Positions 386-35,579 of a stretch of 35,579 nucleotides of DNA are shown piece by piece (positions within the stretch are counted from its first letter, which is position 1; the number at the start of each line of letters is the position of its first letter). The notes under the pieces were generated by a model, which was not told the DNA's origin, ran no database searches, and was given only the letters and a program-made list of their open reading frames with translations. Position numbers and translations under genes: made by a program. The DNA is from Catajapyx aquilonaris (lineage: Eukaryota), in assembly GCA_000934665.2 (NCBI GenBank), contig JYFJ02004014.1, positions 1 through 35,579 of the forward strand, read 5' to 3'.

Positions 386-487
386 GTGGGTCAGACACAC
401 CAGAGATGTCTCCTGGTCGTCTCTTGTACAGAAGAGAGACACGTTCATGCTGCGTGTGGAGGTGTTGACCTGCACTGAGCCTGTCAT
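386..487 (-). pseudogene. GPCR copy 1, 5' part of exon 1 only (interrupted by repeat; any remainder lies outside the window)
   Basis: Encodes MTGSVQVNTSTRSMNVSLFCTRDDQETSLVCLTH, the family N-terminal motif, then runs into unrelated sequence. Confidence 0.8.
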
Positions 488-1994
488 CGAAAGACTGAAG
501 GGTCTATCTGTAAATCTGTGAGTTACGTATCAACGGGATGTGTCCGACATCATGTCAAAAAAGAATGGGACGCGCCCACACTATACGATCAGCTATTGAT
601 GTCTGTATGCAACAAGTGCATTTATTATTGCATATGCATTTCGTATGTATCACAGTTGCTATTATTTTTCGGTCACATAATTGCGACGTTATGTACGCGT
701 ATTACGTTAGGGACTGATATTGTGACACCATTGTTGTTCTGCGTCTGTCTCACAATAATTATGTTTGCACTTCCTATTAGTCCAGTCAACATCCCATTGC
801 ATATCCTGCGGCTTCAAATTCTTTATTATGTGGTGTCTTCTTAATATTTTTGAATGATGGACCTGTACGTGGAAATTTGTGGAAAAATCATCAGACATTT
901 TGGTACAGTTCCATGAACGAAAATTAAGGAGCAAAATATGTGCATGTAATGTGAAGATTGGGACTAACTGCTTTGTTACAACGACGTGTTGTACACTTCT
1001 CTCTATAACGTTTTTGTCTTCCAAGACTACAGGGTGTTCCAAATTATTTTAAAATGTGACCAGAAGTGCCATTCTCTTCTCTCTTTCCTTCAGCTCCATT
1101 TTCATTACCGCTTACTTATATAATTTCAATATATCCGTTACGGCATCCTGTTGGGCAGGTACACTAACCCATATGATAAACAGGGGAATCAACACGTGCT
1201 CTATTTCCGTACATTAGCCTCACAATCAGCTATTACTACCCTGACACTGCAAGGAACAATTCCATCAGTGCCCTCAATTCAATGATAGTAATACTGATTT
1301 ATTCCAATACACATACAGGATTCTCCTATCAATTGTTCACTTTTTACCTAACTTTGTACGCAACCAGTCACGTGTGTCCTGGTAGAGTAAATTACATGCC
1401 TCCCTGCAGCTCGGGATCCTGCAATGACAATAGAACCATTGGTTGTAAACCATCATGTGGTTTTAAAATACATTCAACTTATTACCTGTAGAAATAAAGA
1501 AACACATTGATGACGTAGTAGTAGAGCAGTAAAAAAGACAAATAAATGTAAGGCTTTGTCCATGGGCCTTCCTTGCAAAAGACGTACAAGATGACGAGGG
1601 GTCCTGATGTGCTGGAGTAAACTGCGCCCAAAAGAGTGAGAAGGATGGCCATTTTCTTCTCTCTTTCCTTCAGGTCCTGCAGGGTGCCCTTGCCAATATC
1701 TCTGCAAAGAGAGGCCATCAATAATAATAATAATAATAATAATAATTTATTATCGTCTGGGGTTTTTCCCCTATTGACGGAGAGTACTTGCCTTCCTTTG
1801 CAATACTCAAGACTTACAATACAATATTGAATATACATCAAAACAATTTCGAAAACAAAACGAACCAAATTGTAATTGTGTGCCTAATGTACAATGCAGT
1901 TTGAGCAGTGAGAGAGAAAAAGAAAGGAAAAGAAACAACAGGCAAAAAAACAGGGTTGCTGTTGGGAGGTGGGAATTACATATGTTTGGCTCTG

Positions 1995-4900
1995 TTACAA
2001 AACAATATCGGCAAATTGAAGAAGATACGTGATTTTCAAAAAAAAAGAATACAATTTATGAATTTGAAGGGTCGGGATATCTACGAATAAAAAGAATAAT
2101 TTATCAAGGGGGAGGGAGGGCCATGTCAACATGTGGTTTATTCTCAATGTGTCAAAAAATGGGCAAGTATATAGCAGATGATGGAGAATAAATGGTTCTT
2201 TTAAATTACATAGTGAGCAGTCTATCTCTTCGTTAAATTGGATTTTGTAGGAATTTACATAAAACCAAGATGAATTATTTCGGAGGTTAGCCAAAAGTCT
2301 GAGTGCATGTATTGGAAGATTAGAGTTGAGGTATGATTCCAGATATGGGGACTCTTTGATTAAAAAATAATGTGCATATCTCTTAGACTTCTTTAAATTT
2401 GAAAAATCTTTCTGTATTGAACTGTCCGCATATGTAGTGAGCATACCCAGTATCGAATTAACGTTCTCATCCGCCAACCAACTGTTGGCGGACACTCCCA
2501 TCTTCTCGAATTCTCTCGACACAAACCCAATCCAACTTTTGGAATTTCCACATAGTGATTTATTTACTTCGTAGTCGAAACATCTTTTTGTCAGTGAGTC
2601 CGGTTGCAGCTTCTTTACTTTCAATAACCATTTAATTAGATTTTTCATTATCCGAAGTGCTAATGGTCTACGCCCAGTCTCAAGTCTGACAAAATATCCA
2701 GCTGTACAGCTGGGGAGTACTAAGAATTTTTTAATGAAATACATTTGCACTTGTTCAAGTGTATCCAAATAATCCAGACCCCATATAAAGGAATTGTATA
2801 GGGCGATGGGGGCGATACGCGCATCGAATAATTTAAATGCAATTACAAGGTTTCTTACTTTCAACTTCGTGAGGGTAGGCCAAAGTGCTGCAATTGCCAT
2901 TTTACTTTTATCCACTCTAGACGCTGCTGCCTTCTTAAATTTTCCAGAACTCGAAAATAATATGCCTAAATAATTGTAATGGGCTGTTATCTCCAATAAT
3001 TCACAATTCATACGGAAATGTGTTCCTTTTGCTAACGGTCCCCCTTTGCGAAATATCACTACTTTCGTCTTATTGACATTTATAATCAGTTTTAACTCGG
3101 CCAAATAGGAACTTATAAGTAATATTTTTTTCTTTAAATATAACTCGTTCGGAGCTAGTAGAACTATATCATCTGCAAATTGCAAAAAGTGAATATCTTC
3201 TGAATTCGGTCCCAAATTAACACCCGGAATGCCACTACTTAGTAGTTTATCCTTCAGGTCCGCTAAAAAAAGATTGAATAATATTGGGGACAGTGAATCA
3301 CCTTGTAAAACACCTTTCGTTATTCGAACCGGAAGTATGTCCTCTTCACTTGTGATCGTGGCTGTTGCATAAATACGTTGTATCAAAGAAAGAAATCGAC
3401 CACCGATTCCCAAGTTACCGAGTTTTTTCCAAAGTAATTGATGGTTTACAGAGTCGAAAGCTTTCGAAAGGTCCAAAAATAATGCATACACTTTACCGCC
3501 CTTCTTCGATGTGTATTTATGAATTAATACGTCTAGTGCAAAAATGTGATCTGTACAGCTACGGCCCTGCCGAAAACCTGCTTGTTCATCAGGGAGAACA
3601 TGGCCGCTTTCTATCCATTTTGTTAGTCTTGTCGCCAGAATTGCTGTTAAAAGTTTAAGTATGTTATTTAATAATGAAATTGGTCTGTAATTGGCCGGGT
3701 CCTCTTTATCTCCGCCTTTAAATATCGGCACCACTTTAATCATGGTCCAGCTCGGGGGAATCGGAGCTCCATCTAGCACTAGATTAAACATTGTCAGCAA
3801 TTTATTACGAAGTTCCGAGGCATCTAATACCAAAATTGCATTAGAAATGTTATCAGGTCCCGGAGATGTCTTTGTCTTGCGGGATCTCATAACCATTTGG
3901 ATTTCTCTCATCTGTATTATTTCATCCAATGCACTTCGGTATGTATGACTCACTTCTAAAACACCCCCGGCCCCTCCACAATTTTCGGAATATAATGTTC
4001 TCAAATACGTTAACCAAACATTAGGGGACGGGGCGTTATGTGGTTTCGTTGATGCATTTTTTTTGACAAGTTCCCAAAAAGCTGACGAGTTCTTACAGTT
4101 TAATAGTTTTTGCACCGTATTTGAGTAATAGTACCGTTTTTTGGCCATTATTAATTTTTTATGTATTCTGGAGTTTGTTAAATAGTTAACCCTGTTCACT
4201 TGGTTAGGGACCTTCCTCCATTGTTTTAAGGCTAATTGGATTTGAGACTGGGAGCTTTTGACCTGGTCATCAAACCAAGGATTTGGTTTTTTTTTCCCAC
4301 AGTATGGTCTTCGTATTTTTAAGATCCCTTCTTCAACCAATACTCTTTGAAGCCTTGAGCTGAATTCCAGAGCCAATCCCTCCAACGATATTACTTCCAT
4401 TGGTATATTTGACAGACAATTGTTAATAGGATCAACTAAAAAATCTAGCCCGCCTTCCGGGATGGCTATTTTGAGTTGAGTGGTGGATTCCAGTCTACGT
4501 TGTGTTGGGTTTATGTTTTCGAACTTACAAACCAGAACAATTGGCAAATGATCCGAGCCCACTACACTTATCACTTCAAACGAGTGAATCATTGGAACCA
4601 TAGATTGAGTAACCAGCCCGTAATCAATTGTGCTTTGACCTCTGGATGACAAATACGTGAATCTACCTGGATAATCAGTTGCCACTGCCCCATTCAGAAT
4701 GAACAGGGCGTGGTCACTGAGTAGTTTCCTTAACTGTCTTCCACGACTATTAATCACTGAATCCAATGTAGCACGTTGGTCAAAAACTGAGACTTGTCGT
4801 GCTCCTTCATTTAACCAAACATTATCAGTTTGTCCCAATCTGGCGTTAAAGTCTCCCATTAAGACCAAATGTGTGTCCACTGGGAGCTGCCTTACAATTT

Positions 4901-5366
4901 CAGAGACCCTATCAATTTCCTCATTGAAATAACTGTTTGGTGGTAAATAAATTAAACCAATGGTCACTTTCCCCAAAGTTTTCTCCAAAAAATCAGTTGT
5001 AATGAATATACTACAAGGGTTGGAGGAATACAATTTACATTTTAATACCTTACTCACTCGGAGCCATAGTCCACTAGCCGCCCGTCCAAAATGAGCCTGT
5101 TTACGTGCAGTCACTTGAAAGTCATCATATTCTTGGTCCAATGGCACATTGCTCTTCATGCACCAGGTCTCCAAAAGTCCAACACATCCTAATTTCCCTT
5201 GCGGCCATGTAGCCTGGAGAGCTTCCAATATTGGTAGCCCTGCGACGTTCCATGCTATGAAACTGCACTCCAACATTTCCGTCGGGGGCGTAAAACTAAC
5301 ACTAGCCCCATATCTAACACTTTCACTGGCACTATTGACATTTTCACTCATCACTTCCTCCACCAT
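1995..5366 (-). CDS. LINE ORF2: AP endonuclease-reverse transcriptase, 1123 aa, uninterrupted
   Basis: Endonuclease motifs WNVAG, LLETW, GDFNAR, TIDY, SDH. RT motifs PGPD, YRPISL, QAGFR, DLSKAFD, QGDSLSP, FADD, YLG. C-terminal CSLC...HLLYTC. Confidence 0.96.
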   Translation of the reverse strand: MVEEVMSENVNSASESVRYGASVSFTPPTEMLECSFIAWNVAGLPILEALQATWPQGKLGCVGLLETWCMKSNVPLDQEYDDFQVTARKQAHFGRAASGLWLRVSKVLKCKLYSSNPCSIFITTDFLEKTLGKVTIGLIYLPPNSYFNEEIDRVSEIVRQLPVDTHLVLMGDFNARLGQTDNVWLNEGARQVSVFDQRATLDSVINSRGRQLRKLLSDHALFILNGAVATDYPGRFTYLSSRGQSTIDYGLVTQSMVPMIHSFEVISVVGSDHLPIVLVCKFENINPTQRRLESTTQLKIAIPEGGLDFLVDPINNCLSNIPMEVISLEGLALEFSSRLQRVLVEEGILKIRRPYCGKKKPNPWFDDQVKSSQSQIQLALKQWRKVPNQVNRVNYLTNSRIHKKLIMAKKRYYYSNTVQKLLNCKNSSAFWELVKKNASTKPHNAPSPNVWLTYLRTLYSENCGGAGGVLEVSHTYRSALDEIIQMREIQMVMRSRKTKTSPGPDNISNAILVLDASELRNKLLTMFNLVLDGAPIPPSWTMIKVVPIFKGGDKEDPANYRPISLLNNILKLLTAILATRLTKWIESGHVLPDEQAGFRQGRSCTDHIFALDVLIHKYTSKKGGKVYALFLDLSKAFDSVNHQLLWKKLGNLGIGGRFLSLIQRIYATATITSEEDILPVRITKGVLQGDSLSPILFNLFLADLKDKLLSSGIPGVNLGPNSEDIHFLQFADDIVLLAPNELYLKKKILLISSYLAELKLIINVNKTKVVIFRKGGPLAKGTHFRMNCELLEITAHYNYLGILFSSSGKFKKAAASRVDKSKMAIAALWPTLTKLKVRNLVIAFKLFDARIAPIALYNSFIWGLDYLDTLEQVQMYFIKKFLVLPSCTAGYFVRLETGRRPLALRIMKNLIKWLLKVKKLQPDSLTKRCFDYEVNKSLCGNSKSWIGFVSREFEKMGVSANSWLADENVNSILGMLTTYADSSIQKDFSNLKKSKRYAHYFLIKESPYLESYLNSNLPIHALRLLANLRNNSSWFYVNSYKIQFNEEIDCSLCNLKEPFILHHLLYTCPFFDTLRINHMLTWPSLPLDKLFFLFVDIPTLQIHKLYSFFLKITYLLQFADIVL

Positions 5367-5411
5367 ACTAGTTGCTTCTGTTGCAACAATGAACCCATCT
5401 CCCGCGTTATC

Positions 5412-6284
5412 TTATTCAACCAGATCCTGCACTGTTTCATTCGCTGGCTTCTTCTTCGTCATGTGCGGTGTGTCCATAATGGGCGACGCTGATGGTGGCC
5501 TCTTGTCGTTGCGATTTGCATTGGACTGGTGTGATGTCGTGCTACCATTCTGATCTTGCCTGGCAGCTTGTGCGTACGATGGGCGGGGTGCGCCCCCTGG
5601 TACCGGGACCCCGTCTTCGTTGATGACTTGCCTTGTTCCATTGATCCACAGCTTGTCGTGACTAATCCAAGCGTTGTCGCCTTTTTCTTTCGCTGCTTTC
5701 AGGTGAGGAAGAAGACTCTTACGTATCTTCCTCGTTTCCCAGCTGAAGTCATCGCGTATTGCGATTGATGTTCCGGCAAGATTCTTGGCACTTCTACGGA
5801 TAAACTACTTATCCTTGTAGTAGGTGAATGCCGAAATTAATGGTCTGGGCTGGGCTCCGATCTGGTTCCGTCTCCCCCCTACCCTGTGCGCTCTATCAAT
5901 CGGTGGTTGAGCACGACCTTGGGGAAGTAGCTGGAAGTCCCTGATGCACTTGATCACCTTTCTTTCTGCCTCGGCCCAATTTTCTTCACGTTCTTCCGGG
6001 ATTCCGTAGAACACCAAATTGGAACGGCGTAGTCGGTCCTCCAGCTCTCTGTTCTGGTTCTGTATTGCCGCCAGCTGGTTTTTCAGGGCTTCTACTTCAG
6101 TCCCATTCGACTTTGTCCGTTCTTCTAGGACTGCCATCTGCGTTGCTATACCATCAACCTTCCTGGATAGGGGGGCCACAACGTCTTGAACCAAACTGGC
6201 CCTCAACTCTGCGATGAGAGACTTCTTGAGTTCTTCCAGGATTGGTGTGAGGGCCTCTACCGACAATGGGGTAGTGGAACTCAT
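5412..6284 (-). CDS. LINE ORF1 (coiled coil + L1-ORF1-like RRM/CTD) with an internal in-frame TAG at 5805-5807
   Basis: Heptad-rich N-terminus, then LEDRLRRSNLVFYGIPE and IDRAHRVG...PRPLI. After the TAG the same frame continues FIRRSAKNLAGTSIAIRDDFSWETRKIRKSL...HDKLWING to a TAA at 5412-5414. Confidence 0.85.
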
Positions 6285-7086
6285 TTTATCGTCTTATCTT
6301 CGTTATGCTGACCCAGCTGAGCTGAGAGCCAAAAGGCACGTCCTTCCTATTCAAGAGTTGGCAAGCCTCTCGTCAAGTAGGCCATCAATAACATCACCAG
6401 TTAGTTGCAAACATCGTACCTGAAGCGCTTCAGTGGAGACCAACTCTGGCGCATCATGATCCAGATGAGTAAAAGACAGACCAACACTGTGATCCACGGA
6501 AGACAAACGTCTACTCCGTGGAGTACATTGTACTCATGATGATTCGCGTCAATCGACAACGAGCAGAAACCTTTACGTCTGCTGTAGCCATACCGGTTCT
6601 GAAACTGTTTTTAAAGGACATTATATTGTAATCAGTTTACAAGAAATGCTCACCGCCAAAAACGTTGGCGCCACTGCTGCCAACACCCATATGGCCACCA
6701 CCGCAGGGATGCCACCATACGACCCAAACAAGAAGTCGTAGCAAGAAGACTACCAGAGCTTCAATGTCCTTCAGGAGAGAAAGAATCAGTCTTCTGCACC
6801 AATAGGCACCATTATACTCCACCTGCTGAGTGTGGCTGCTGCCAGGGAAGTGGTTGAGGCCAACGACAGATAGGGCATGAGACCGCTGAAGATGTAGCAG
6901 TACATGGTACCTAGGACCCACTTTCGGTACAGATAAGACACTGGTAGGCCAGATAATATAATGAAGCAGTAAAGAGTGTCCGCAAGGCTCAGGCTGAGCA
7001 GGAGCAAGGTGGTTGGGCTAGTGGCAACAACACCCTGACAACGAACACGTTGTAACATGCTTCGGGGAAGAGCAACGGTCGAGTGA

Positions 7087-7157
7087 GCGCCGCTGGTGTA
7101 GGGGTATCATGCAAGATTCCCATTCTTGCGACCCGGGTTCGATTCCCGGGCGGCGCA
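7087..7157 (+). tRNA. tRNA-Gly (anticodon CCC)
   Basis: GCGCCGC/GCGGCGC acceptor stem, GCAAG-ATTCCCATT-CTTGC anticodon arm, GGTTCGATTCC T arm, discriminator A, and a TTTTT Pol III terminator just downstream. Confidence 0.92.
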
Positions 7158-7350: not shown

Positions 7351-8769
7351 TTACCCCAACATCATGGCCACTTTTGCATATCTTCTTGTGCAGCCACTTA
7401 CGCGTGTGTCTCTGTAGAGTAACACGAAGGCATCCCGGTAGCTCTGTATCCTGCAATAATTACAGGTAAAGCCTGTGAAAATGTACGTGCATAATATTTC
7501 TGTGAGAATGTTAACTACCTGTATATGTAAAGAACCACGTTGATGACATAGTAATAGAGAGGGAAGAATGTGTAATAGATGTAAGGCCTGGTCCAGGGTC
7601 CTCCTTTGAAGAAGACGTACATGATGACCAGTGGTCCTGCTGTACCGGTGTAAACCAATCCAAGGAGAGTGAGAATTATGGCCATTCTCTTCTCTCTTTC
7701 CTTCAGATCCTTCAGGAGGTTTGAACCCACATCTCTGCAAAGAGTGGAGTGTCACGTCCAATCCCACCATTGCATTGTCTGCATGTACCTGAATTGCTTC
7801 AGTCGAGACCAATTTTGATGCATCTTGATCCAGATCAGCAGGAGGCACACCAAGACAGTGACCCAGGGAAGACACACATCTATTCCATATATTAGGACGC
7901 CATCTTCAGGATGATGTCCGTCACTGAGCATTGTGCATAACCCACTTGTTCTGCTGTATCCGAATCGGTGCTGTAACTGTTTGTATAATTGAATAATGTC
8001 TTAGTCTAACAGTCACTCTCTCATATCGTCTCCAATAGTGAAACTCATTGTGACTAATTTTTACAATCTTGATGATTTTAAGCTCTGAACAATTGGAGTA
8101 ATTTACATATAGCCTACTCGTACACACACCGCCACAACTGTTGGCACCACTGCTGCCAACATCCATATTCCTACGACAGCAGGTATGCAACTGTACGACT
8201 CGAAGAGGAAATTGTTTCCAGGAGGCCACCATAAGGCCAGCACCCTGTAGTAATAAAATAATTACACTTACGTAGTACACTCGTACCAGTCGTACAGTAC
8301 GCACTGCAATATCGTACCTGCTGAGTGTAGCTGCTGCCAGAAAACTAGTTGACACCAACGCCAGGTAGAAGACGAGGAAGCCGGATATGTAGCAGTATCT
8401 GATGCCCATGACCCACTTCCTCTGCAGAAAGGTCACTGCGTAGCCAGACAAAGCCACAAAGCAGAAGAGACAGTCCGCCAAACTAAGACTCAGGAGAAGG
8501 ACAGTGGTTGGGCTCTTTAGAGGACTTCGAGTGTCCGTGGTCCTCCACCTGGCGTATGGAATGGCCACCAGTACCATCAGGTTCCCAAATCCTCCAACCA
8601 CACTCAGAAGGAGCCAGTATGTTCCTGCTATTACTGTGAAGTAGTAAGGATGGTCCGGGAAGCAGCATGATGGCACTTCCTGTTGGGTCAGACACACTAG
8701 AGATGTCTCGTGGTCGTCTCTTGCGCAGAAGGAAGACAAGTTCAGGTTGATTGGAGAAGAGGTGTTCAT
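7351..8769 (-). CDS. Class A GPCR copy 3 (exons 8769-8318, 8244-8130, 7976-7789, 7734-7519, 7450-7351)
   Basis: Spliced frame is open with seven hydrophobic segments. Relative to copy 6, a 2-bp insertion near 7400 changes only the C-terminal tail. Confidence 0.85.
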
Positions 8770-9226: not shown

Positions 9227-10760
9227 TCACTTCCAGGATGAAACAGCGACTTTCCTAAAAGCCATGCGCATCCATGTCCGCGCATCTTTGTAAACTATAG
9301 CAAGGGCATCCATGTAGCTCTGGATCCTGAAAGAAATAAGGATGGCCATTTTTGATAGGGTATTATTGCATTACAATATGTAGGGACGTCATGAGAGTGA
9401 TGTACAATATTTTCAACTATAATATTGTTGAGGTAGGAGTGGAGAAGACCTATGCAATGTATACATCTGTTACAGACAAAAAAAGCTTACCTGTAGATAT
9501 AAATGAACACGTTTATTGCAAAGCAGTAGAGAGTGATGAAAGCATAGTATATGTACGGAGGGCTCCAAGGTCCTTCAGAGGTAAACACGTAGATGAGGAA
9601 CACTGGAATTGCAGTGCTGGTGTAAGTAGCTCCCAACAATGTGAGAAGAATTGTCATCTTCTTCTCTCTTTCCTTCAGCTCCTGAAGGGTGCTTTGCCCC
9701 ATGTCTCTGCAAATATTGGCACAATTTTTAAAGACGGTTTTTGTCAACGTGTGGTCACATACTCACTTGAAACGTTTAAATTGTGACCAATTTTGACGTA
9801 TTTTGATCCAAATGAGCAGGAGGCAGACCTGAACTATGAGCCATGGAAGTATGTGTACTACAGCCATACCGTATGCTGTTTGCTGATCAACGTCAATCAG
9901 CATGTCACAGAAACCTTCTCGCCTGCTATATCCTATTTCGTAATGAACCTATTCGCATTGAATATAAACAATGTCTTATTAAGTTAATCATCGTATGAGA
10001 CACATGGCAAAAGTTACTCACACTGGCCGATACGGGCACTGCAGCAGACACTACCCAGACCACAACCACGACAGGGATGCTCGCATATGGCTCGAAGGTG
10101 ACAGCAGATGCTGCAGGCCACCACAATAACAATGTCCTGTGGACATGAAGACATGACGCTACTACCATGTAAGCAGTGCAACGGTCACTCTGACTTCACT
10201 ATAGATATCTAAAGATTGACATCACTATAGACATAATAGTCCGATCTACCAGCATGTCTTTCTTTATGCACCTCATTAGGTTACTGCCTTTACCTACTAA
10301 GTGTAGCTGCTGCTAATGAATAGGGTGAGGCCACTGCTAGGTAATGGGTGATGAAAGCGAATATGTAGCAGAACCTGACTCCAAGTATCCACTTCTGATA
10401 CAACAACGTCAATGCTCTGGCTGGAAAGAAGATGAAGCAGAAGATGCAGTCAGCCAGACTCAGGCTCAGGAGCAACACCGTGGTTGGGCTCTTCAGAGGA
10501 CTTTGAGTGTCCGTGGTCCTCCACCTGGCGTAAGGAATGGCCACCAGAACCAGCAAGTTGCCGAATCCTCCAACCACACTCAGAAGCAAATAATATGTTG
10601 CTGCGATGATGTTGAAGAGGTAAGGATGGTCTGGGTAACAACACGAGGGAGCGTCCTGATGGGTCAAGCAGACAAGAGATGTCTCCTGGGCATCTCTAGA
10701 GCAGAAGGATGACATGTTGAGCTCAGCGGTATAAGTGTTGGCCTGCTCTGATCCAGCCAT
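9227..10760 (-). CDS. Class A GPCR copy 4 (exons 10760-10294, 10136-10022, 9948-9767, 9706-9491, 9326-9227)
   Basis: Spliced frame is open and all introns are GT-AG. Same subfamily as copies 7 and 10. Confidence 0.9.
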
Positions 10761-11467: not shown

Positions 11468-12783
11468 TTAGCACCAATCACGTCTATTGTACTTGGCATG
11501 GAACCAACGACATGTGTCACGGTATAATAAAATAAAGGCATGCCTGTAGGTCGGTATCCTGCAAAAATTTCATGAATTAATACCGGTACCTTATACTACA
11601 CATTACTTGACCATGAAAGAAGCTTACCTGTAGATGTAGAGAAACACATTGGCGGCGTAATAGTAGAACACGAAGAAAGTAAAGTAGATGTACGGTTTGG
11701 TAAGTGGGTCTTTTTTGAAGAAGAGGTACATGATGAAGAGTGGTCCACATTGGCTGGAGTAAATTCCTCCCAGAAGAGTCAGAAGGATGGCCATTCTCTT
11801 CTCTCTTTCCTTCAGGTCATGCAAGGTTTTTGCACCAATATCTCTGCAAACAATAGTATCAGTTCCATTCATCCCAGCATAGTTACATTGTTTACTCCGT
11901 ACTTGAATTGCTTCAGTTGAGACCAATTTTGACGCAGTTTGGCCCAGATGAGAAGGAGGCACACCAAGACAGTGGCCCACGTAAAGCACAGAGAAAACCC
12001 GTAGAGTACATTAGGCCTGTTTCCATTATAATTTCCATGGCCCATCATTGCACACAATCCTCTTGTTCTTCTGTATCCATATCCATACTGAAACTGTTGT
12101 ACAATTTGCCATTTTAATAGCCATCCAGACTATTTCTTTGTCATCTTACCCCCTCAAATATTGGCACCACTGCTGCGAGCATCCACACTGCCACCGCCGC
12201 AGGGACACCACTGCGCCACTTGAAGAGGATGGCGTTACATGCAGGCCACCACAGGTCCAGTGCCCTTTGCAGGAGGAATACAGTAGTTCAAATTGTGGCT
12301 TACTTATATGAGGCTGCCATACCTGCAGAGTGTGGCTGCTGCCAACGAAATGGTCGACGCCATGAAGAGATGAAGGCCCAGGAAGCCAACAATGTAGCAG
12401 TACGTGGGGCTAAGGACCCACTTTCTGTATAGAAACGTCAGTGCCATGCCAGACAATATGTTGAAACAGTAGAGGCAATCGGCCAGGCTGAGGCTGAGCA
12501 GGAGGACAGTGGTTGGGCTATTCAGAGGACTTCGAGGATCCGTGGTCTTCCATCTGGCGTAGGGCAAGGCCACCAGAGCGAGCAAGTTCCCAAATCCTCC
12601 AACCACACTCAGAAGTAGCCAGTATGTTCCTACTATCACTGTGAAGTATGTCGGATACTCGGGAAAGCAACATGGTGGCACCTCCTGTTGGGTCAGACAC
12701 ACTCGAGATGTCTCCTGGTCGTCTCTGGTGCAGAAGGAAGACAAGTTCAAGTTGATGGAGGATGTGTTGACCGGCCCTATCAT
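11468..12783 (-). CDS. Class A GPCR copy 5 (exons 12783-12323, 12264-12150, 12093-11903, 11843-11628, 11558-11468)
   Basis: Spliced frame is open with GT-AG introns. Close paralogue of copy 9. Confidence 0.9.
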
Positions 12784-13245: not shown

Positions 13246-13316
13246 GCGCCGCTGGTGTAGGGGTATCATGCAAGATTCCCATTCTTGCGACCCGGGTTCG
13301 ATTCCCGGGCGGCGCA
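13246..13316 (+). tRNA. tRNA-Gly (anticodon CCC)
   Basis: Identical to 7087-7157, with shared flanks and a TTTTT terminator. Confidence 0.92.
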
Positions 13317-23327: not shown

Positions 23328-23776
23328 TCCGTCAGCTCCTGGTGTACACAGAGGACCACACAAGCCATGTGTGACGATATACAGCGATATGGTCCCTCAT
23401 TCACTATGTATGAATGCATATCATTTACAGACAATTGAATGTATATATCTGATATTTTGGGATAACTTGAGGGCACATGCACATCCTTATACAGGGTGTT
23501 TCAGAGTCACGGGTCAAGCGCGCGCGAGGGGGTGGGGAAAAATCGCAGGTGGCGACAACTCCGGTCTGTTTTATAAGACAATTAGAAATTAGGGAGTAAT
23601 AAGTTTATTTATTACGGCCGTACTGCGTGACGTCACATCCTTTCTGTTCGAATCGACTGGCGCGGACTGGCAGGTGTAGTAGTGGGTTGAACTTGGCTTA
23701 GGTGATGATGAAGTCACTGACATAGGGCCGGTTGTATGCATATTGCAAACATGACACTTCCAGTATGGCGGTCGTG

Positions 23777-25081
23777 TTAGTGTGATTTGGAACGAAACCA
23801 GTCACACATGTCTCTGTAGATTAAAATAAACGCATCCCTGTAGCTCGGGATCCTGCAATCATACATGAAAGTATATCAAAAAGTGTCATATTTCAAGTCG
23901 AAATAAACCAAGCTGCTTACCTGTAGATGTAAAGAAATACGTTGACGACAAAGTAGTAAAGTGTGATGAAAATGAAATATATGTAAGGTTTTGTCCATGG
24001 TCCTCCTTTGAAGAAGATGTAGATGATGACTCGTGGCGCTTCTGTGCTGGTGTAAACCACTCCCAGAAGACTGAGAAGGATGGACATCTTCCTCTCTCTT
24101 GCCTTCAGGTCCTGCAGGGTGCTCTTGCCCACATCTCTGGAAATATCTGGATGTGTTACGTCACCAAGTCATATCTGAACGTAGTACCTGAACAGTTTCA
24201 GTTGAGACCAATTCCGGTGAAGCTCTATCCAAATGAGTAGGAGACACACGAGCACAGTAACCAAGGGAAGATACAGGGCCACTCCATAGATGGTGTTATC
24301 TCCAGAATTGTTCACACCAATCAGGAAGGAGCAAGTTCCCTTCACTCTGCTGTATCCATACCCATATTGCAACTGTATATTTGGACAAATCAACAAATAT
24401 TAATAATTTATGAGTTAATCTGGTGGCTGTTGGCATAGATTTTCTCACCGCTACAACAGTTGGCACCACTCCTGCCAACATCCATATTGCCAACACTGCT
24501 GGGATACCATGACATGACTTAAAGAGGACTTGGTTACCTGCAGGCCACCACATTTCTAAGCTCCTCCAAGACAGAAATGATGCTGTTAATATTTCACATA
24601 TGCTCATTGTATTACAATACCTGCTGAGAGTAGCTGCTGCCAACGAAATGGTTGACGTCAATCGCAGGTAGCTCGAGAGCAATCCTAATATGTAGCAGTA
24701 TATGGTGCCCATGACCCACTTCCGGTGTATAAAGGTCACTGCCATGCCCGATAGTATGAAGAAGCAGACGAGACAGTCAGCCAGACTCACACTCAGAAGA
24801 AGAACAGTGGTGCAGCTCTTCAGGGGACTTCGAGGTTCCTTTGCTTTCCACCTGCCATATGGAATGGCCACCAGAACCATCAGGTTGCCGAATCCTCCAA
24901 CCACACTTAGGATGAGCCAGTATGTCCCTGCTATCAGTGTGAAGTATTCAGGATAGTCCGGGAAGCAGCAAGATGGCACCTCATGTTGAGTCAAGCAAAC
25001 TCTAGATGTCTCCTGGTCGTCTCTCGTGCAGAAGGAAGACACATTCAGTTCGGAGGTGTTGACCTGCACCGAATCCGTCAT
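23777..25081 (-). CDS. Class A GPCR copy 11 (exons 25081-24621, 24563-24449, 24372-24188, 24136-23921, 23852-23777)
   Basis: Spliced frame is open. The intron 1 acceptor is a weak GAG. Start chosen by homology (MTDSVQVN). Confidence 0.87.
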
Positions 25082-25478: not shown

Positions 25479-26807
25479 TCAAACACTGAGCTGTATGCCA
25501 GAAGAATGTTGGTTACTTTTACATGTTAATTTTGCATGAAACCAGTCGTGTGTGTCCTTGTACAGTAGAACAAATGCTTCCCGATATCTTGGGATCCTGA
25601 AATGATAATTAATGTGAGTATAAGGAAATAATAAGCCTATCTTTTTTACCTGTAAACATAAAGAAGCACGTTGACGACGAAGTAATCCATCAGTAAGAAA
25701 GTGTAATAAACGAAAGGTTTATCCCACGGGCTTCCTTTCAAAATCACGTAAACTGCGACTAATGGTGCTGCTGTAGCGGAATAAACTGCACCCAGGAGAG
25801 TCAGAAGGATGGCCATTCTCTTCTCTCTCTCCTTTATAACCTGCAGGGTACTAGCACCCACATCTCTGCAAAGAGTGGGACATACAGTGCCCCTCTCACA
25901 ATTTAATACGGTACTGTACCTGAATTGTTTCAATTCAGACCAGTTGCGTCGGAATTTAATCCAGATGAGCAGGAGACAAACCAGGGTTGTTATCCACGGA
26001 GTATACTGGGCCATTCCATAGATGCGGGTGTTTCCTGAATGATTCGATTCAATGATCATTGAGCAGAATCCTCTTGTTCTGCTGTATCCATATCCATACT
26101 GGAACTGATTGACACTTTAGTTGTTCATCGTTTATAATGCTGAGAAGATATATTGTGCTCACCGCCAGTAAGGTTGGCACCACTGCTGCGAGGACCCACA
26201 CTGCCAGCACTGCAGGGATGCCACTGTACGACTCAAACAGAACTTCGTGACCTGCATTCCACCACAACTTCATCGTCCTTTAGGAAATAAACCAAGCTAT
26301 TTTATAGTTATTTTGTCCCACTGTTAATACTGTAACACTACCACACCTGCTCAGTGTAGCTGCTGCCAACGATGTGGTTGAGACCAGTCCTAGATAGTGG
26401 AAGAGGAAGCCCGAAATGTAGCAACAAGTGGGTCCTAGAACCCACCTTCTGTTTAAAAACGCCACTGTCATTCCAGACAGTATGAAGAAGCAGACGAGAC
26501 AGTCAGCCAGACTCAGGTTCAGCAAGAGGACCGTGGTTGGGGTCTTCAGAGGACTGTGAGGGTCCGTGGTCCTCCACCTGGCGTAGGGCAAGGCCACCAG
26601 AGCCATCAGGTTCCCAAATCCTCCAACCACACTCAGAAGGAACCAGTACGTCGCTGCGATCATGATGAAGTGGTAAGGGAGGTCCGGGAAGCAGCAGGAA
26701 GGAGCATCCTCTTGGGTCAGACACACTCGAGATGTCTCTTGATCATCTCTTGTGCAGAAGGATAACATGTTCAGGTCCATGGAGGATGTGTTGACTCTGA
26801 ATTCCAT
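25479..26807 (-). CDS. Class A GPCR copy 12 (exons 26807-26347, 26277-26163, 26104-25920, 25865-25650, 25596-25479)
   Basis: Spliced frame is open with GT-AG introns. Confidence 0.9.
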
Positions 26808-27168
26808 TGCAACAGACTGAGCCTTGGAATGGCTGGTTGTGCGGTAATGCGACCTTGTTCACTTCAGGGACATGCCAATGGATATTTGCGTGTAATGTCA
26901 CAAAAATAACGCAGCAGGCATGGTGATGTATATTATCTTACCATGCCCAAACTGCCATCGATATTGTGGCCTGGACAGCCTATAATTAAATAACATCCGA
27001 AAAGCCCAAAGAGTGACAGTCACGAGAAGAGTCGATGGCGGTGATCAATCCCATTGTAGGCCTACCATGGGCCTTGGAGGGTTATGTCAACAAAAAAGAA
27101 TACATGCCTGTTGATGTACTATACTACGATACAGCAAGATGTGATTTTTTTTGATATGCATGGTACAT

Positions 27169-27569
27169 GAATGATAAGTAATGGAGGAGAAAGCCGGTTA
27201 TGTAGCAGTATGTGGCACCTAATGTCCACTTTTGCTGTAGAAACGTCACGCCCAGGCTGGATAAAAGAATGAAGCAGTAGACACAATCGGCCAGACTGAG
27301 GTTCAGCAACAGGACCGTGGTGCAACTCTTCAGAGAACTTCGTGGGTTCCTGGTCCTCCATCTGGCATAGGGCAAGGCCACCAGCACTAGCAAGTTGCCG
27401 AACCCTCCAACGACACTCATGATGACATAATACGTCCCTGCGATGATGTTGAAAAAGTGAGGACGATCTGGGTAACAGCAAGATGGAGCATCCTGTCTGG
27501 TAAGACGCACTAAAGATGTCTCCTGGTCGTCTCTGGTGCAGAAATGTTGGTATGTACTGATCCTGCCAT
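27169..27569 (-). pseudogene. GPCR copy 13, exon 1 fragment
   Basis: A frameshifting deletion lies between MAGSVHTN and FCTRDD. Homology ends in TM3 (LLHYLSF) and exons 2-5 are absent. Confidence 0.87.
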
Positions 27570-27978: not shown

Positions 27979-29304
27979 TCAGCATGCTTCATGTTCCGTT
28001 TGGTCAGGTTTTCTTAGCTTCTTGTGGAAGAGGGCACACATATCTTTGTGGAGTAAAAAGAATGCATCTCGGTAGCTCGGGATTCTGAAATAATTTGAGT
28101 ATTATGCATGATTTAACTGTAAGTTGAAACAATTACCTGTAGACGTAAATAAATACGTTGATGACGAAGTAGTAAAATAAGACGAAAGTAAAATGCACGT
28201 AAGGTCTGTGCCACTGGCTTTCCTTGAACACCAGGTAGATGACGACTATTGGTACGGATGATGTGGAGTACACCACTCCAAGAAGTGTCAGAAGGGTGGC
28301 CATCCTCTTCTCTCTTTTCCTCAGTTCCTGCATGGTACTTGTACTCACGTTTCTGCAAAAAGTGGTGACCATCACAAATTATTTCCAAACACTCCAGTTG
28401 CACTGTACCTTAATTGTTTCAGTTGAGACCAGTTACATCGCAGTTTGATCCATATCAGCAGGAGGCAGACCATGACCATGACCCAGGTGAGACCCACAAA
28501 TATTCCGTACAGAACATTGACTGCCAGGTGATTCACTTTAACAATAATCGTGCAGATTCCTTTGGTCCTACTGTAGCCACCTCCATGCTGAACCTGGTTG
28601 TAATTGTGACGCATTTATAATCATTATCTTAATGAGACTGTGCGTGGGTGTGAGTCTTCGTACGCACAGTTGCAAAGATGGGCAACACAGCTGCCCACAT
28701 CCATGTGACCACCACTGCAGGAACACCACTGTACGACTCAAACAGGACGTTGTAACCTGCAGGCCACCACAGTTTCAATGCCCTACGGAAGAAAAACACT
28801 CGCCAGTAATAAGCATTGTCACGTCCGTATGTCATTACAATACCTGCTCAATGTAGCTGCTGCCAGGGAGTTGGTTGACGCTAATGCCAGGTACAAGGAG
28901 ATGAAACCGAACATGTAGCAGTACCAGACACCAAGGATCCACTTTCGATGCAGAAACGTCACTGCCAATCCGGGCAATGAGAATAAGCAGTAGAGACAAT
29001 CAGCAAGGCTCAGGCTCAGGATCAGGAGTGTGGTAGGGCTTCTGAGAGGACTCTGAGGGTCAGTGGTCTTCCACCTGGCGTAGGGCAAGGCCACCAGAAC
29101 AAGTAGGTTCCCCAAGGTGCCAACCACACTCAGGAGGAGCCAGTAAGCCCCTGCAATTATTGTGAAGTATTGATAATGGTCAGGGAAGCAACAAGATGGC
29201 ACCTCCTGTTGTGTCAGACACACTAGAGATGTCTCCTGGTCGTCTCTTGTGCAGAAAGAAGACACGTTCAGGTCGGATGTGCTGACCCCCACTGATCCTG
29301 ACAT
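27979..29304 (-). CDS. Class A GPCR copy 14 (exons 29304-28844, 28782-28668, 28593-28409, 28352-28137, 28084-27979)
   Basis: Spliced frame is open with GT-AG introns. Very close paralogue of copy 15. Confidence 0.9.
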
Positions 29305-30557: not shown

Positions 30558-30993
30558 CAGGGTGTTCATGAAAAACACCGACACACCTATATCACCCCCG
30601 ACCTAGGGACCAGACGATCACATTATGTAGAGGAGTGATTATTCATAAGCCGCCTCATTACCGAGCAAATTGCCATCAAACAGGTAGTATAAAATATCCT
30701 GGAAGTTAGGCCACCCATCGAACCCTTCCCCAGTCACAAGGCTCTGGAAGGTCTGGGGGCGGGACATTGTTGGTTTGTTGCCCACAGTTGGTAAGGCCTC
30801 TATGGCTAGTTACACATGTAAATTCTCTTTTAAAGTCAGAAGGAGCGATTAGGCAAAAATCGCTAATCAGCAACGAGTCAATTATCTCAGTAATGAGGCG
30901 GTGTAGACATAATGACTCCTCTACATAAAATGACCCTCACGTTACCACTGGCCACTGGTTATCAGTTTTTTGGTGTTTTTCAGGAACACCGTG
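30558..30993. mobile_element. MITE with Tc1/mariner-like ends
   Basis: TIR CAGGGTGTTCATGAAAAACACC / GGTGTTTTTCAGGAACACCGTG-TA, plus a subterminal inverted pair ATGTAGAGGAGT...CCGCCTCATTAC at about 30625-30665 and 30886-30925. Absent from the matching 3' flank of copy 14. Confidence 0.8.
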
Positions 30994-31030: not shown

Positions 31031-32374
31031 TCAGCATGGTTCAGGTTCCGTTTGGTCAGGTTTTCTTAGCTTCTTGTAGCAGCGGGCACACATATCTTTG
31101 TGGAGTAGAAAGATTGCATCTCGGTAGCTCGGGATTCTGAAATATTTTGCGTATTATGCATATCTTAATTATCACAAATGATTTAACTGTAAGTTGAAAC
31201 AATTACCTGTATACGTAAAGAAATACGTTGATGACGAAGTAGTAAAATAAGACGAATGTAAAATACACGTAAGGTCTGTGCCACTGGCTTTCCTTGAACA
31301 CCAGGTAGATGACGACTATTGGTACGGATGATGTGGAGTACACCACTCCAAGAAGTGTCAGAAGGGTGGCCAGCCTCTTCTCTCTTTTCTTCAGTTCCTG
31401 CATGGTACTTGTACTTATGTTTCTGCAAAAAGTGGTGACCATCACAAATTATTTCCAAACACTCCAGTTGCACTGTACCTGAATTGTTTCAGTTGAGACC
31501 AGTTACATCGCAGTTTGATCCAGATCAGCAGGAGGCAGACCATGACAATGACCCAGGCGAGACCCACAAATATTCCTAATAGAACATAGTCTGTCAGCTG
31601 ATTCACTTTAAAAATAATCGTGCAGATTCCTTTGGTCCTACTGTAGCCACATCCATACCGAACCTGGTTGTAATTGTTAAGCATTTATAATCATTATCTT
31701 AATGAGACTGTGCTTGGGTGTGAGTCTTCGTACGCACAGTTGCAAAGATGGGCAACACAGCTGCCCACATCCATGTGACCACCACTGCAGGAACACCACT
31801 GTACGACTCAAAGAGGACGTTGTAACTAGCAGGCCACCACAGTTTCAATGCCCTATAGAAGAAAAACACTAGCCAGTAATAAGCATTGTCACGTCCGTAT
31901 GTCATTACAATACCTGCTCAATGTAGCTGCTGCCAGAGAGTTGGTTGACGCTAATTCCAGGTATGTGGTGAAGAAACCGAACATGTAGCAGTACCAGACA
32001 CCAAAGATCCACTTTCGATGCAGAAACGTCACTGCCAATCCGGGCAATGAGAATAAGCAGTAGAGACAATCAGCAAGGCTCAGGCTCAGGATCAGGAGTG
32101 TGGTAGGGCTTCTGAGAGGACTCTGAGGGTCAGTGGTCTTCCACCTGGCGTAGGGCAAAGCCACCAGAACAAGTAGGTTCCCCAAGGTGCCAACCACACT
32201 CAGGAGGAGCCAGTAAGCACCTGCAATTATTGTGAAGTATTGATAATGGTCAGGGAAGCAACAAGATGGCACCTCCTGTTGTGTCAGACACACTAGAGAT
32301 GTCTCCTGGTCGTCTCTTGTACAGAAAGAAGACGCGTTCAGGTCGGATGTGCTGACCCGCACTGATCCTGACAT
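31031..32374 (-). CDS. Class A GPCR copy 15 (exons 32374-31914, 31852-31738, 31663-31479, 31422-31207, 31136-31031)
   Basis: Spliced frame is open with GT-AG introns. Exons 1-4 are offset exactly 3070 bp from copy 14. Confidence 0.9.
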
Positions 32375-32580: not shown

Positions 32581-32668
32581 CCTCCTCCTCCTCCTTAATC
32601 CTCCTTAATCCTCCTTAATCCTCCTTAATCCTCCTTAATCCTACTTAATCCTCCTTAATCCCCCTAAA
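32581..32668. repeat. (CCT)n followed by a (CTCCTTAATC)~7.5 minisatellite
   Basis: Directly visible 10-bp tandem unit at 32591-32668. Confidence 0.95.
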
Positions 32669-32709
32669 TATTCGCTGGCAACCCCATATCTGTTTGGGAC
32701 ACCGTTCAC

Positions 32710-33214
32710 AGCAGGCCACCATTGTTGTAACGCCCTTTGTAGGTGGAAACAATTCAAACTCGGACTTCTACACCGCAGTAGCAATAATACCTGCTGAGTG
32801 TAGCTGCTGCCTGGGAATTGGAAGAAGCCAAGACTAAGTAGAGGAGGAGGAAGCCGGAAACGTAGCAATATCGGGTGCCCAGAACCTTCGGAGAAGAAAT
32901 GTCACTCCCATCTCGGGCAGATTGGTGAAACAGAACAGTCCATCCACCAGACTCATGCTGAGGAGGAGGACTGTCGTTGGGCTCTTCAGAGGACTTCTAT
33001 GGTCCCTGGTCCTCCACCTGGCGTAGGGCAAGGCCACCAGCACTAGCAAGTTGCCAAATCCTCCAACCACACTCAGGAGGAGCCAATATGTTCCTGCTAT
33101 CATCGTGAAGTATATCGGATGATCTGGGAAGCAGCATGATGGCACTTCCTCCTGGGTCAGACACACTAGAGATGTCTCGTGGTCGTCTCTTGCGCAGAAG
33201 GAAGACAAGTTCAT
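32710..33214 (-). pseudogene. GPCR copy 16, truncated (exon 1 33214-32791 and the start of exon 2 from 32734)
   Basis: Frameshifting deletion near 32885 relative to copy 17. Homology ends after ALQQWWPA and exons 3-5 are absent. Confidence 0.87.
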
Positions 33215-33545: not shown

Positions 33546-34984
33546 TCACGGTTCTATTTCATTATTATCCCGAAATGTTGGTAGAATTCTGCTCAACTTC
33601 CCATGCAACAGGTCACACGTGTCTCTGTAGAGTAGAATAAATGCATCCCGGTAACTTGCGATCCTGCAACAATGACATGAGTATTTTATGTAATGGTAGA
33701 CAGTATAACGAGAAATTAATTACCTGTAGACGTACAGAATTACGTTGATGACGAAGTAGTAATATGTGGAAAAAGTGACATATATGTAAGGTTTGGTCAT
33801 CGGGCTTCCTCTGAATGCCAGGTAGATGATGACTGGCGATGCTGTCGTGCTGACGTAAGCAGCTCCCAGAAGAGTCAGAAGAACAGTCATTCTCTTCTCT
33901 CTCTCCTTCAGGTCATGTTGTGTGGACTTGCCCATGTCTCTGGAAACAGTGGCACATGACAGCCATCACAGGTCAACCTTCACAGTTTCATAACTCACTT
34001 GAACTCCTTCAGTTGAGACCAGTTCTGGCGCAGCTTGATCCAGATCAGAAGGAGGCAGACCAGGACAGTGACCAATGGGAGAATTGTAGCTATTCCGTAC
34101 ATAACGTAAACTACTGCCTGATTTCCTTCAATCATTATCAATGTGCAAACTCCTTTTCTTCTGCTGTAGCCATAGTCATACTGAAACTAATAAATTGTAC
34201 CTAGATAACACCGAAAATGCATCGGCTACATCACTATCTGGATGTGTGCTTTGGGTGCTTTGGGGGGTTGCACTTGTGCCGCACTGTCAGTCAGAGTTAC
34301 TGGGCCACCCCGTTTGTGCCTCCAACTGGTTGAATATGTTACTTACCGCCACAAATATTGGCAACACAGCTGCCAACATCCACGCAAACACAGTTGCAGG
34401 AACACCACTGTACGACTTAAAGAGGACGTCGTAACCTGCAGGGCACCATTGTTGTAACGCCCTTTGCAGGAGGAAACTATTCAAACTCTGACTTATACTC
34501 TGTAATAGCAATAATACCTGCTGAGTGTAGCGGCTGCCAAGGAATTGGAAGACGCAAAGGTTAAGCATTGGAAGAGGAAGCCGGAAACGTAGCAATATCC
34601 GGTACCCAGAACCCACTTCCGGAGAAGAAACGTCACCCCCATCTCGGGCAGATTGGTGAAGCAGAACAGTCCATCAGCCAGACTCAGGCTGAGAAGAAGG
34701 ACTGTCGTTGGGCTCTTCAGAGGACTTTGAGGATCAGCTGTCCTCCACCTGGCGTAGGGCAAGGCCACCAGCACTAGCAAGTTGCTCAATCCTCCAACCA
34801 CACTCAGGAGGAGCCAGTATGTTCCTACTATCACTGTGAAGTATTCAGGATAGTCCGGGAAGCAGCAGGAAGGAGCATCCTCTTGGGTCAGACACACCAG
34901 AGATGTCTCGTGATCGTCTCTTGCGCAGAAAGATGTCACGTTAAGGTCGATGGAGGATGTGTTGATCTGCACTGAGACTGACAT
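33546..34984 (-). CDS. Class A GPCR copy 17 (exons 34984-34518, 34461-34347, 34186-33999, 33939-33724, 33663-33546)
   Basis: Spliced frame is open with GT-AG introns. Confidence 0.9.
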
Positions 34985-35387
34985 CGATAGAGACTGGATG
35001 TAATGGCGGCGAATAGCTTGTTATGCATTGAACATGGGGTATTAATTCCAAGCAATGAATGGCTGCAGCAATGCATTCATGCACTAATTGGCGAAGTGTC
35101 GATGCGGTATTTGCATATACTGTCAATGAAAACAATGCGATATCAGTAAACCAATCGGATAATAATTGTTTCTTAATACTGTGGTACAGGCAGACTAAAA
35201 AGAGCAGACTTGACGAGGACTCTGTATGTTCTTAGGTAATATGTAATTGGTCCAGAAAGATGATTATGAGATGGCAGATGGCATATCAACGTATGCTTGA
35301 CATATGTTTAACACATATTTGGGGTTGTCACTGAAACGTGTACAGACCACGGTTCCATATCATAATTCCGTCGGAATATTGGTCGGC

Positions 35388-35579
35388 TCAACTTCGCGTG
35401 AAACGGATCACACTGTCTCTATGGAATAATGTATTCCGGTAGCTCGGGATCCTGAAATAATGACAGGAGTACATTATGTAATGACTGACAGTATCACGCA
35501 ACACTGTTCGAGTATCTTCATTAATTACCTCTAGAAGTAAGGAAAAACGTTGATTACGTAGTAGTAATTAGTGTAGGAA
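35388..35579 (-). pseudogene. GPCR copy 18, 3' end only (exon 4 end 35579-35529, exon 5 from 35451); probable pseudogene
   Basis: Reads YYYVINVFPYF*R with a TAG at 35531-35533. Exon 5 (RIPSYRN...) carries small deletions. The array continues beyond the window. Confidence 0.75.

Follow-up and report, generated by a model that had tools for sequence, protein, structure and literature searches.

The stretch analysed here, positions 1 to 35,579 of contig JYFJ02004014.1 from Catajapyx aquilonaris (hereafter the window, always meaning these 35,579 nt in full), carries on its minus strand tandem repeats of a single five-exon gene coding for a G protein-coupled receptor (GPCR). Exon-wise tblastn combined with splice-site modelling recognized 18 units of this gene, all in the same orientation and spaced about 2 kb apart, as had been claimed in an earlier note made from the letters of this DNA; the partition given there as approximate, some 11 intact and 7 dead copies, turned out to be exact. 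With one exon-1 peptide as tblastn query, 17 exon-1 sites were detected at E-values of 1e-56 to 1e-107, which excludes a chance origin, and a recurring peptide, '...SSFCTRDDQETSLVCLTQQEVPSCCFPD...GNL...LSLADC...', was read in the stop-to-stop frames of the minus strand. The G+C content of the window lies between 38 and 48%.

Gene models were obtained by a boundary search requiring GT and AG in the correct phase close to the homologous position. Full models were attempted for 12 units, 11 of which (A, C, D, F, G, I, K, L, M, N and O) proved intact and encode proteins of 350-370 residues (aa). The exons of the intact copies measure 449-467, 115, 176-191, 216 and 76-148 nt, and the intron phases are 2,0,2,2 in all 11 models, in agreement with the architecture first proposed (460, 115, 185, 216 and 90 nt, with the same phases). 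GT and AG were found at homologous positions of the intact copies, the boundaries of exons 2-4 falling exactly at the extrapolated place in all cases but one; the introns span 51-164 nt, mostly 52-76 nt, and minimal-type introns of 50-70 nt occur in the array genes. Copy L, read by eye and subsequently by script, may serve as the example, with exons of 449, 115, 185, 216 and 148 nt, GT-AG introns of 52-81 nt and a product of 370 aa. A polyadenylation-type hexamer (AATAAA or ATTAAA) lies within 500 nt past the stop codon in 9 of the 11 intact copies, C and D being without one. The seven dead units comprise three full-length pseudogenes (H, J and P) and four fragments (B, E, Q and R). Copies had been placed at both edges of the window in the earlier note: the left edge ends in a fragment only (copy R, 359-487), and at the right edge exon-wise tblastn found no GPCR piece in 35000-35579, the last 595 nt being free of copies. 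Pfam returned no domain for seven other open frames on both strands, and the plus-strand frames lying over exons were taken as antisense artefacts. The 18 copies are as follows.

Copy A, 33546..34984, minus strand: intact, 367 aa; exons 34518-34984, 34347-34461, 33999-34186, 33724-33939 and 33546-33663; open spliced model, GT/AG homologous.
Copy B, 32793..33214, minus strand: dead; exon 1 only, ATG present, frameshift near 32885; 86.5% DNA identity to exon 1 of A.
Copy C, 31031..32374, minus strand: intact, 360 aa; exons 31914-32374, 31738-31852, 31479-31663, 31207-31422 and 31031-31136.
Copy D, 27979..29304, minus strand: intact, 360 aa; exons 28844-29304, 28668-28782, 28409-28593, 28137-28352 and 27979-28084.
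Copy E, 27154..27549, minus strand: dead; exon-1 relic without in-frame ATG, exons 2-5 absent.
Copy F, 25479..26807, minus strand: intact, 364 aa; exons 26347-26807, 26163-26277, 25920-26104, 25650-25865 and 25479-25596.
Copy G, 23777..25081, minus strand: intact, 350 aa; exons 24621-25081, 24449-24563, 24188-24372, 23921-24136 and 23777-23852.
Copy H, 21571..23339, minus strand: dead; traces of all five exons, with an in-frame stop in exon 1 and a disrupted exon 3; palindromic insertion of about 420 nt (22437-22856) in intron 1.
Copy I, 19886..21212, minus strand: intact, 359 aa; exons 20755-21212, 20582-20696, 20335-20525, 20058-20273 and 19886-19985.
Copy J, 17781..19137, minus strand: dead or nearly so; five exons, a single 1-nt deletion in exon 4 near 18021, outside a homopolymer.
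Copy K, 15643..17010, minus strand: intact, 350 aa; exons 16544-17010, 16307-16421, 16064-16239, 15781-15996 and 15643-15721.
Copy L, 13461..14838, minus strand: intact, 370 aa; exons 14390-14838, 14223-14337, 13957-14141, 13681-13896 and 13461-13608; downstream ATG used.
Copy M, 11468..12783, minus strand: intact, 357 aa; exons 12323-12783, 12150-12264, 11903-12093, 11628-11843 and 11468-11558.
Copy N, 9227..10760, minus strand: intact, 359 aa; exons 10294-10760, 10022-10136, 9767-9948, 9491-9706 and 9227-9326.
Copy O, 7351..8769, minus strand: intact, 356 aa; exons 8318-8769, 8130-8244, 7789-7976, 7519-7734 and 7351-7450; exon 5 reading differs from L; out-of-frame upstream ATG at 8785.
Copy P, 1343..6983, minus strand, exons 1-3: dead; exon 1 without its first ~100 codons (6825-6983), exon 2 (6654-6767) with a stop, exon 3 at 6422-6604.
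Copy P, 1343..6983, minus strand, 3' part: retrotransposon in intron 3, exon 4 at 1488-1700, exon 5 at 1349-1417.
Copy Q, 1055..1096, minus strand: dead; 14 residues of exon 4 remain, a weak match (E 0.001).
Copy R, 359..487, minus strand: dead; exon 1 from the ATG through codon 43, followed by unrelated sequence.

The GPCR identity asserted for these genes is borne out by their products. The Pfam profile 7tm_1 matched exon 1 of copy L above its cut-off (34.9 bits vs. 30.5; E 1.5e-8, profile positions 1-79), and seven hydrophobic segments recur at conserved positions. All 11 intact copies retain N1.50, D2.50, C3.25, the cysteine of the second extracellular loop (ECL2), R3.50, W4.50, E6.30, N7.49 and Y7.53, with P6.50 present in 10 and P5.50 in 7 of them. 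The canonical D/E-R-Y is replaced by S/C-R-A/T/V, and NPxxY by N-V-x-x-Y, in every intact copy; since R3.50, N7.49 and Y7.53 are kept, this change is regarded as a variant and not as exclusion from class A. Judged by these residues, the array genes classify as class A (rhodopsin-like) GPCRs. A reading as opsins was rejected: position 7.43 is Y, F, M or L, with no retinal-binding lysine in any of the 11 copies, and melanopsin and xenopsin appeared as weak matches only. Ahead of the first transmembrane helix (TM) the proteins share the motif C-x-R-D-D-x-E-T-S-x-x-C-L-x(7)-P-S-C-C-[FY]-P, whose four cysteines are invariant in the intact copies and which is preceded by one or two N-glycosylation sequons. 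Because the loops hold no free partner cysteine, the simplest reading is that these four would pair with each other in two internal disulfides.

The array appears in self-comparison of the window as 182 matches, all of them direct repeats, of which the longest 60 were inspected. Whole units, introns included, align at 66-94% DNA identity, and the intact proteins are 50-91% identical in pairwise comparison. The closest pairs, with their synonymous divergence (dS), are these.

Pair C/D: 91% protein identity, 93.7% DNA identity over 1490 nt, dS 0.05.
Pair L/O: 88% protein identity, 90% and 86% DNA identity, dS 0.22.
Pair I/M: 86% protein identity, 88.2% DNA identity, dS 0.28.
Pair K/N: 76% protein identity, 78.7% DNA identity, dS 0.41.

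Given the order I-J-K-L-M-N-O, the pairs I/M, K/N and L/O indicate that a block comprising three to four genes was duplicated once (I-K-L to M-N-O). Two tRNA-Gly(CCC) genes, antisense to the receptor genes, lie just downstream of O and L, and since their flanks align at 91% they must have been copied with the receptor block. C/D represents a single-unit duplication later than the block duplication, and B a single-gene duplicate of A.

The intact copies are under purifying selection, the pairwise Nei-Gojobori ratio of nonsynonymous to synonymous divergence (dN/dS, omega) having a median of 0.29 at a median dS of 0.96 over 55 pairs. Exons are better kept than introns in the pairs L/O (identity 0.93 vs. 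0.69) and K/N (0.83 vs. 0.68). Within the protein, the regions most alike are the first intracellular loop (ICL1, 79% identity), TM1 (76%), TM2 (71%) and the N-terminus (68%), and the least alike are ECL2 (44%), the least conserved loop, and the C-terminal tail (25%). Column entropy along the helices falls from 1.19 bits in their outer thirds through 0.75 in the middle thirds to 0.52 in the inner ones (p 1e-7 for outer vs. inner). At the 31 sites taken here as the common ligand-pocket positions of class A receptors, entropy reaches 1.51 bits, compared with 0.77 for the remaining 172 positions of the helices (p 8e-7), the most extreme positions being 3.33, 3.32, 3.36, 2.57, 6.48, 5.38 and 7.42. 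Likewise, median dN (omega) amounts to 0.374 (0.36) in the outer parts, 0.207 (0.24) in the inner parts and 0.112 (0.13) in N-terminal residues 12-40. The picture is one of a putative signalling face and N-terminal cap held constant, together with a diversified pocket.

Relatives of the family are few. Exon 1 was searched with HMMER against 1.84 billion cluster representatives of about 15 billion public proteins, yielding 86 matches at E<=1e-3 and a single one at E<=1e-10; the latter, P0001, is a fragment of 123 aa in a catalogue of soil proteins; it is 57% identical and bears the same N-terminal motif. One-to-one orthologues in a characterised family, which the earlier note had listed as a finding that would speak against its proposal, were thus not what the scan returned, P0001 being the single clear relative. 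Names were attached to 11 of the 30 matches looked up: five are Tre1, Tre1-like or moody-like proteins, the Tre1/moody-like matches coming from ticks, house-dust and spider mites, scorpions and horseshoe crabs, and the others are ostracod and copepod gene models, melanopsin, xenopsin, a planarian GCR and a generic entry. By blastp the spliced proteins are 26% identical to a tick Tre1 over 320 residues (E about 1e-27) and 27% identical to the unnamed protein P0003. Among solved structures, GPR84 was the top match of exon 1, which covers TM1-TM3, with E 2.4e-6 for a single sequence and 6.9e-8 for a 12-row profile; the next family followed about fifty-fold behind by single sequence and about ten-fold by profile (galanin receptor 1, 9.8e-7). 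Profiles of exon 3 (TM5) and exon 4 (TM6-7) matched no GPCR of solved structure at E<=0.01, their best E-values, 0.074 (ZNRF3) and 0.042 (oxytocin receptor), respectively, being unusable.

Two quick maximum-likelihood trees of 41 and 47 rows, selected by similarity to the query, united the 11 intact copies in one clade (support 100) on a long stem (1.6-1.7 in the two trees), placed inside a group of 23 rows consisting solely of unnamed environmental sequences (Shimodaira-Hasegawa-like approximate likelihood ratio test, SH-aLRT, 99). This environmental group together with the array is sister to the named Tre1/moody clade (SH-aLRT 88 and 84), a placement that provides moderate evidence, because the rows were chosen by similarity and the trees contain neither GPR84 nor insect Tre1. 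In profile-profile comparison the unnamed group scored 283 (E 8e-40, 336 columns), Tre1/moody 205 and a mixed set of other class A receptors 201, so that Tre1/moody do not stand out from the other class A receptors by this measure. The Tre1/Moody/GPR84-like ancestor advanced in the earlier note therefore survives in part: it agrees with the best named matches, the top solved structure and the sister position in two trees, but the array is not nested in that group, the profile scores are nearly equal, NRY and NPxxY are absent, and the exon-3 and exon-4 profiles remain unmatched. On this kinship evidence we file the family as a divergent orphan lineage of class A, of which Tre1, Moody and GPR84 are the nearest named neighbours and not the group to which it belongs.

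Further searches agreed with this isolation. A word-indexed search of exon 1 against longer proteins gave no match, and the matches in a protein atlas were generic 7tm_1 clusters only. A profile of the unnamed clade, run against the 90% representatives of a set of 5.8 billion protein clusters, gave 22 matches at E<=1e-10, none closer to the array family, those named among them being generic (melatonin-receptor-like, RYamide receptor, HCAR2-like). A scan of metagenome contigs with the exon-1 alignment produced 77 pattern matches and one confirmed locus (L001), which was discarded as a 20-residue chance match in DNA of 59% G+C. Since RefSeq proteins of many animals were searched and none was close, the family seems limited to a lineage without a deposited proteome. 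Full-text searches of the open-access literature on Tre1, moody and GPR84 brought up no report of such receptors being expanded in tandem, and the receptor family appears to be undescribed, as the earlier note had surmised.

Several other elements accompany the receptor genes, namely:

Non-LTR (long terminal repeat) retrotransposon splitting copy P, 1720..6293, minus strand: second open reading frame (ORF2) at 1995-5411, 1138 aa, open; reverse-transcriptase (RVT_1, E 2.6e-36) and endonuclease (Exo_endo_phos_2, E 8.1e-11) domains.
tRNA-Gly(CCC), two identical genes, 7087-7157 and 13246-13316, plus strand: Rfam tRNA, 58.1 bits each; a T-run after each.

The retrotransposon, a long interspersed nuclear element (LINE) of 4.5 kb, lies 20 nt from the acceptor of exon 4 of copy P, with an (AAT)9 run at 1720-1746; its upstream frames (5412-6293) are in phase with ORF2 with stops between, and the best public relative of ORF2 is a psyllid protein 29% identical to it, too distant to hint at the host. 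To judge from the uninterrupted ORF2 of 1138 aa, the element is probably young. Two foldback elements resembling miniature inverted-repeat transposable elements, each of about 420-440 nt, occupy 22437-22856 (intron 1 of H) and 30558-30993 (in the 1.7-kb gap between C and D); both are nearly end-to-end inverted repeats with arms 78-90% complementary. A 10-nt microsatellite, (TCCTCCTTAA) x 8, lies at 32589-32669, directly downstream of relic B and upstream of C.

Recurrent signals precede the coding region as well. In 10 of 12 copies (A, C, D, F, G, I, J, K, M and N; e.g., 25082-25100 for G) a pyrimidine-rich stretch ending in CAG or TAG, then TC..TTGCA, is found 8-12 nt before the ATG. This element could be a splice acceptor, serving either an intron in the 5' untranslated region or a trans-spliced leader, or else a start-site element of the initiator-like CAGTC type. 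Farther upstream, at about 110-150 nt, most copies have an ATTGTTTYC...TGACA element. Copies L and O differ in that their ancestral ATG is out of frame, the receptor frame being opened by a downstream ATG; the ancestral ATG of O (8785) opens an out-of-frame ORF of 100 aa (8483-8785), and that of L (about 14870) an upstream ORF of 7 codons.

The array is a familiar class of genome feature, namely a tandem, pseudogene-rich, lineage-specific cluster of class A genes. We hold with moderate confidence that it represents a lineage-restricted class A repertoire of chemoreceptor type, which has grown by birth-and-death and derives from a deep sister lineage of Tre1/Moody. According to this proposal, the tandem locus would grow and decay through single-gene duplications (C/D, and B from A) together with the block duplication. 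Each intact unit would yield a receptor of about 360 residues with a glycosylated N-terminus, four invariant cysteines therein and the usual disulfide between TM3 and ECL2. The conserved inner face (R3.50, E6.30, N7.49, Y7.53, ICL1 and the start of TM6) would presumably couple to heterotrimeric G proteins; the lining of the pocket in the helix bundle, which differs per copy, would let each copy recognise a different small ligand, and all copies would signal through one shared pathway. We infer the coupling to G proteins, the diversity of ligands and a sensory rather than internal role, and consider a chemosensory role of the array plausible but unproven. The ligand-diversifying repertoire put forward at the outset fits both the birth-and-death pattern and the variation centred on the pocket.

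Several observations weigh against a sensory repertoire of this kind. The family size seen is that of one locus in a window of 35,579 nt, and none of the nearest named relatives, Tre1, Moody and GPR84, is a sensory receptor. The most constrained part of the protein is the extracellular N-terminal motif, an unusual trait in a chemoreceptor that may hint at one partner or ligand shared by the copies. Positive selection was not shown by pairwise dN/dS of the intact copies, the only omega above 1 being that of the outer parts of C/D (1.29), from 16 nonsynonymous vs. 4 synonymous changes. The exons of C/D are no better kept than their introns (0.958 vs. 0.967), and in I/M exon identity (0.881) falls below intron identity (0.928), the introns being far above synonymous sites (dS 0.28); this excess may reflect intron-biased conversion, or chance in 237 aligned intron bases. 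The 31 pocket positions are putative ones, and single positions may be off because residues were numbered from anchor residues only. Finally, any set of paralogous GPCRs with different ligands, sensory or not, would give the same pattern of variation.

More tentatively, the family could be a third, undescribed branch beside Tre1 and Moody/GPR84, whose marks would be N-V-x-x-Y, an N-terminal cap knotted by disulfides and a first inner loop that is both long and conserved. It would serve as the GPCR-type chemoreceptor repertoire of a poorly sampled invertebrate lineage, which, going by the best matches and the single relative from soil, may be a non-insect arthropod or some other animal of the soil. 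We regard this extension as doubtful; if true, chemoreception would have arisen here independently, out of receptors that guide cells.

Among the alternatives to a sensory repertoire, the one that fares best, though we judge it unlikely, is that the expanded receptors detect internal or microbial cues in migrating or immune cells and not in sensory neurons. The kinship of the family lends itself to this view: Tre1/moody-like proteins are the nearest named relatives and GPR84 is the top solved-structure match, and in passages of PMC8540695, PMC8177520 and PMC9508565 Tre1 is described as guiding germ and immune cells and GPR84 as an immune-cell receptor. A shared partner would, in addition, fit the conserved N-terminal motif (omega 0.13). 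However, the kinship with Tre1/Moody is distant (26% identity) and is not singled out by profile comparison, the array is devoid of the NRY and NPxxY of Tre1, and few named Tre1 members occur per genome, three in Drosophila as stated in part of PMC8540695. The 39% share of pseudogenes fits sensory and immune repertoires equally.

It is more improbable that most copies are functionless by-products of a duplication-prone region, drifting to pseudogenes. With 7 of the 18 copies already dead, the frame of the ancestral start codon lost in L and O, and the dN/dS of C/D at 0.83 with exons no better conserved than introns, part of the array does have this appearance; yet the median dN/dS over the 55 pairs is low at a dS of about 1, eleven open frames of 350-370 codons persist at that distance, all 11 intact copies keep the key receptor residues unchanged, and dN/dS is 0.29 for L/O. 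An assembly artefact by which one or a few genes were falsely multiplied, also named as an alternative in the earlier note, is hardly credible even though most of the stretch was found only in runs of one sample (0.80-0.81 of its sampled words in four DNA runs, and 0.06 in one run of another study) that may be the source of the assembly itself, since false copies would be near-identical, whereas these differ by 6-33% in DNA and 9-50% in protein and carry separate lesions and separate insertions (LINE, palindromic elements), which excludes duplication by assembly.

Lineage-specific tandem expansions of class A genes are a route by which several animal groups built chemical senses, and each new case reveals which receptor stock was recruited. 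If the genes of this array are expressed in sensory cells, they would name the receptors of an animal group in which chemoreceptors of this stock are not known; if they are broadly expressed receptors for internal cues, the array would be an ordinary gene-family expansion. An invariant four-cysteine N-terminal motif beside a variable pocket constitutes a structural oddity.

Among known systems, the array shares with Tre1/Moody the class A fold, the ECL2 signature G-[YFL]-x(4,5)-C and the helix 8 signature Y-[RQ]-x-A-[FY], besides the best named full-length matches and the sister position in two trees. According to passages of PMC8540695, Drosophila has three such genes, Tre1, moody and CG4313, and GPR84 is the mammalian counterpart of moody. 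Conversely, Tre1/Moody are low-copy genes, whereas the array holds 18 units at one locus that are not nested within them. In an alignment with tick, mite, scorpion and horseshoe-crab sequences, the array has S/C-R-A/T/V where Tre1 has NRY (named as the Tre1 motif in part of PMC3848830) and N-V-x-x-Y where Tre1 has NPxxY; its ICL1 is about 8 residues longer and includes P-Y-A-R-W, and the four-cysteine N-terminal motif belongs to the array only of the two. Orthologues across phyla, as expected of a member of the Tre1/Moody/GPR84 group, were not seen for the array, which has one clear relative in 1.84 billion representatives. GPR84, the medium-chain fatty-acid receptor of vertebrates, resembles the array as the top solved match of exon 1, but it is single-copy, and the exon-3 and exon-4 profiles do not find it.

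The nearest group by both profile and tree is the unnamed environmental clade from metagenome and transcriptome catalogues (P0003, P0019, P0037, P0049, P0050, P0062, P0079, P0083, P0245, P0260 and P0261, among others). Its members have in common with the array a C-x(9-11)-C-[FYV]-P N-terminus and a long ICL1 containing P-[YF]-A and, like it, carry [ST]-R where DRY would stand and N-[FVY]-x-x-Y where NPxxY would. They are 22-27% identical to the array proteins and have two N-terminal cysteines instead of four; furthermore, they are single open frames on short contigs, whereas the array genes have four introns. The predicted fold of P0003 is a confident seven-transmembrane receptor (predicted local distance difference test, pLDDT, 85.6; predicted template-modelling score, pTM, 0.85) whose ECL2 forms a hairpin; compared with solved folds, it resembles class A receptors in general, with opioid, somatostatin and histamine H3 receptors first and GPR84 at rank 13 (TM-score 0.69), a ranking that does not discriminate among families.

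In genome layout, the array resembles chemoreceptor clusters, to which kinship by sequence was not shown. Passages of PMC11526382 describe tandem clustering, pseudogenes and expansion within single lineages as typical of chemoreceptor families, and clustered rhodopsin-like genes of a starfish are presented as candidate olfactory receptors (ApORs) in part of PMC5442662. As portrayed in these excerpts, the starfish ApORs, the surreal-GPCRs of sea urchin and the families of Aplysia and nematodes are likewise fast-diverging rhodopsin-like paralogues in tandem (PMC5442662, PMC11526382). The array differs from them in two respects: its intact units have four short introns, whereas many chemoreceptor families are described in passages of PMC11526382 as intronless, and it is much denser, with 18 units in 35 kb compared with the 12 in 140 kb given for the starfish in part of PMC5442662.

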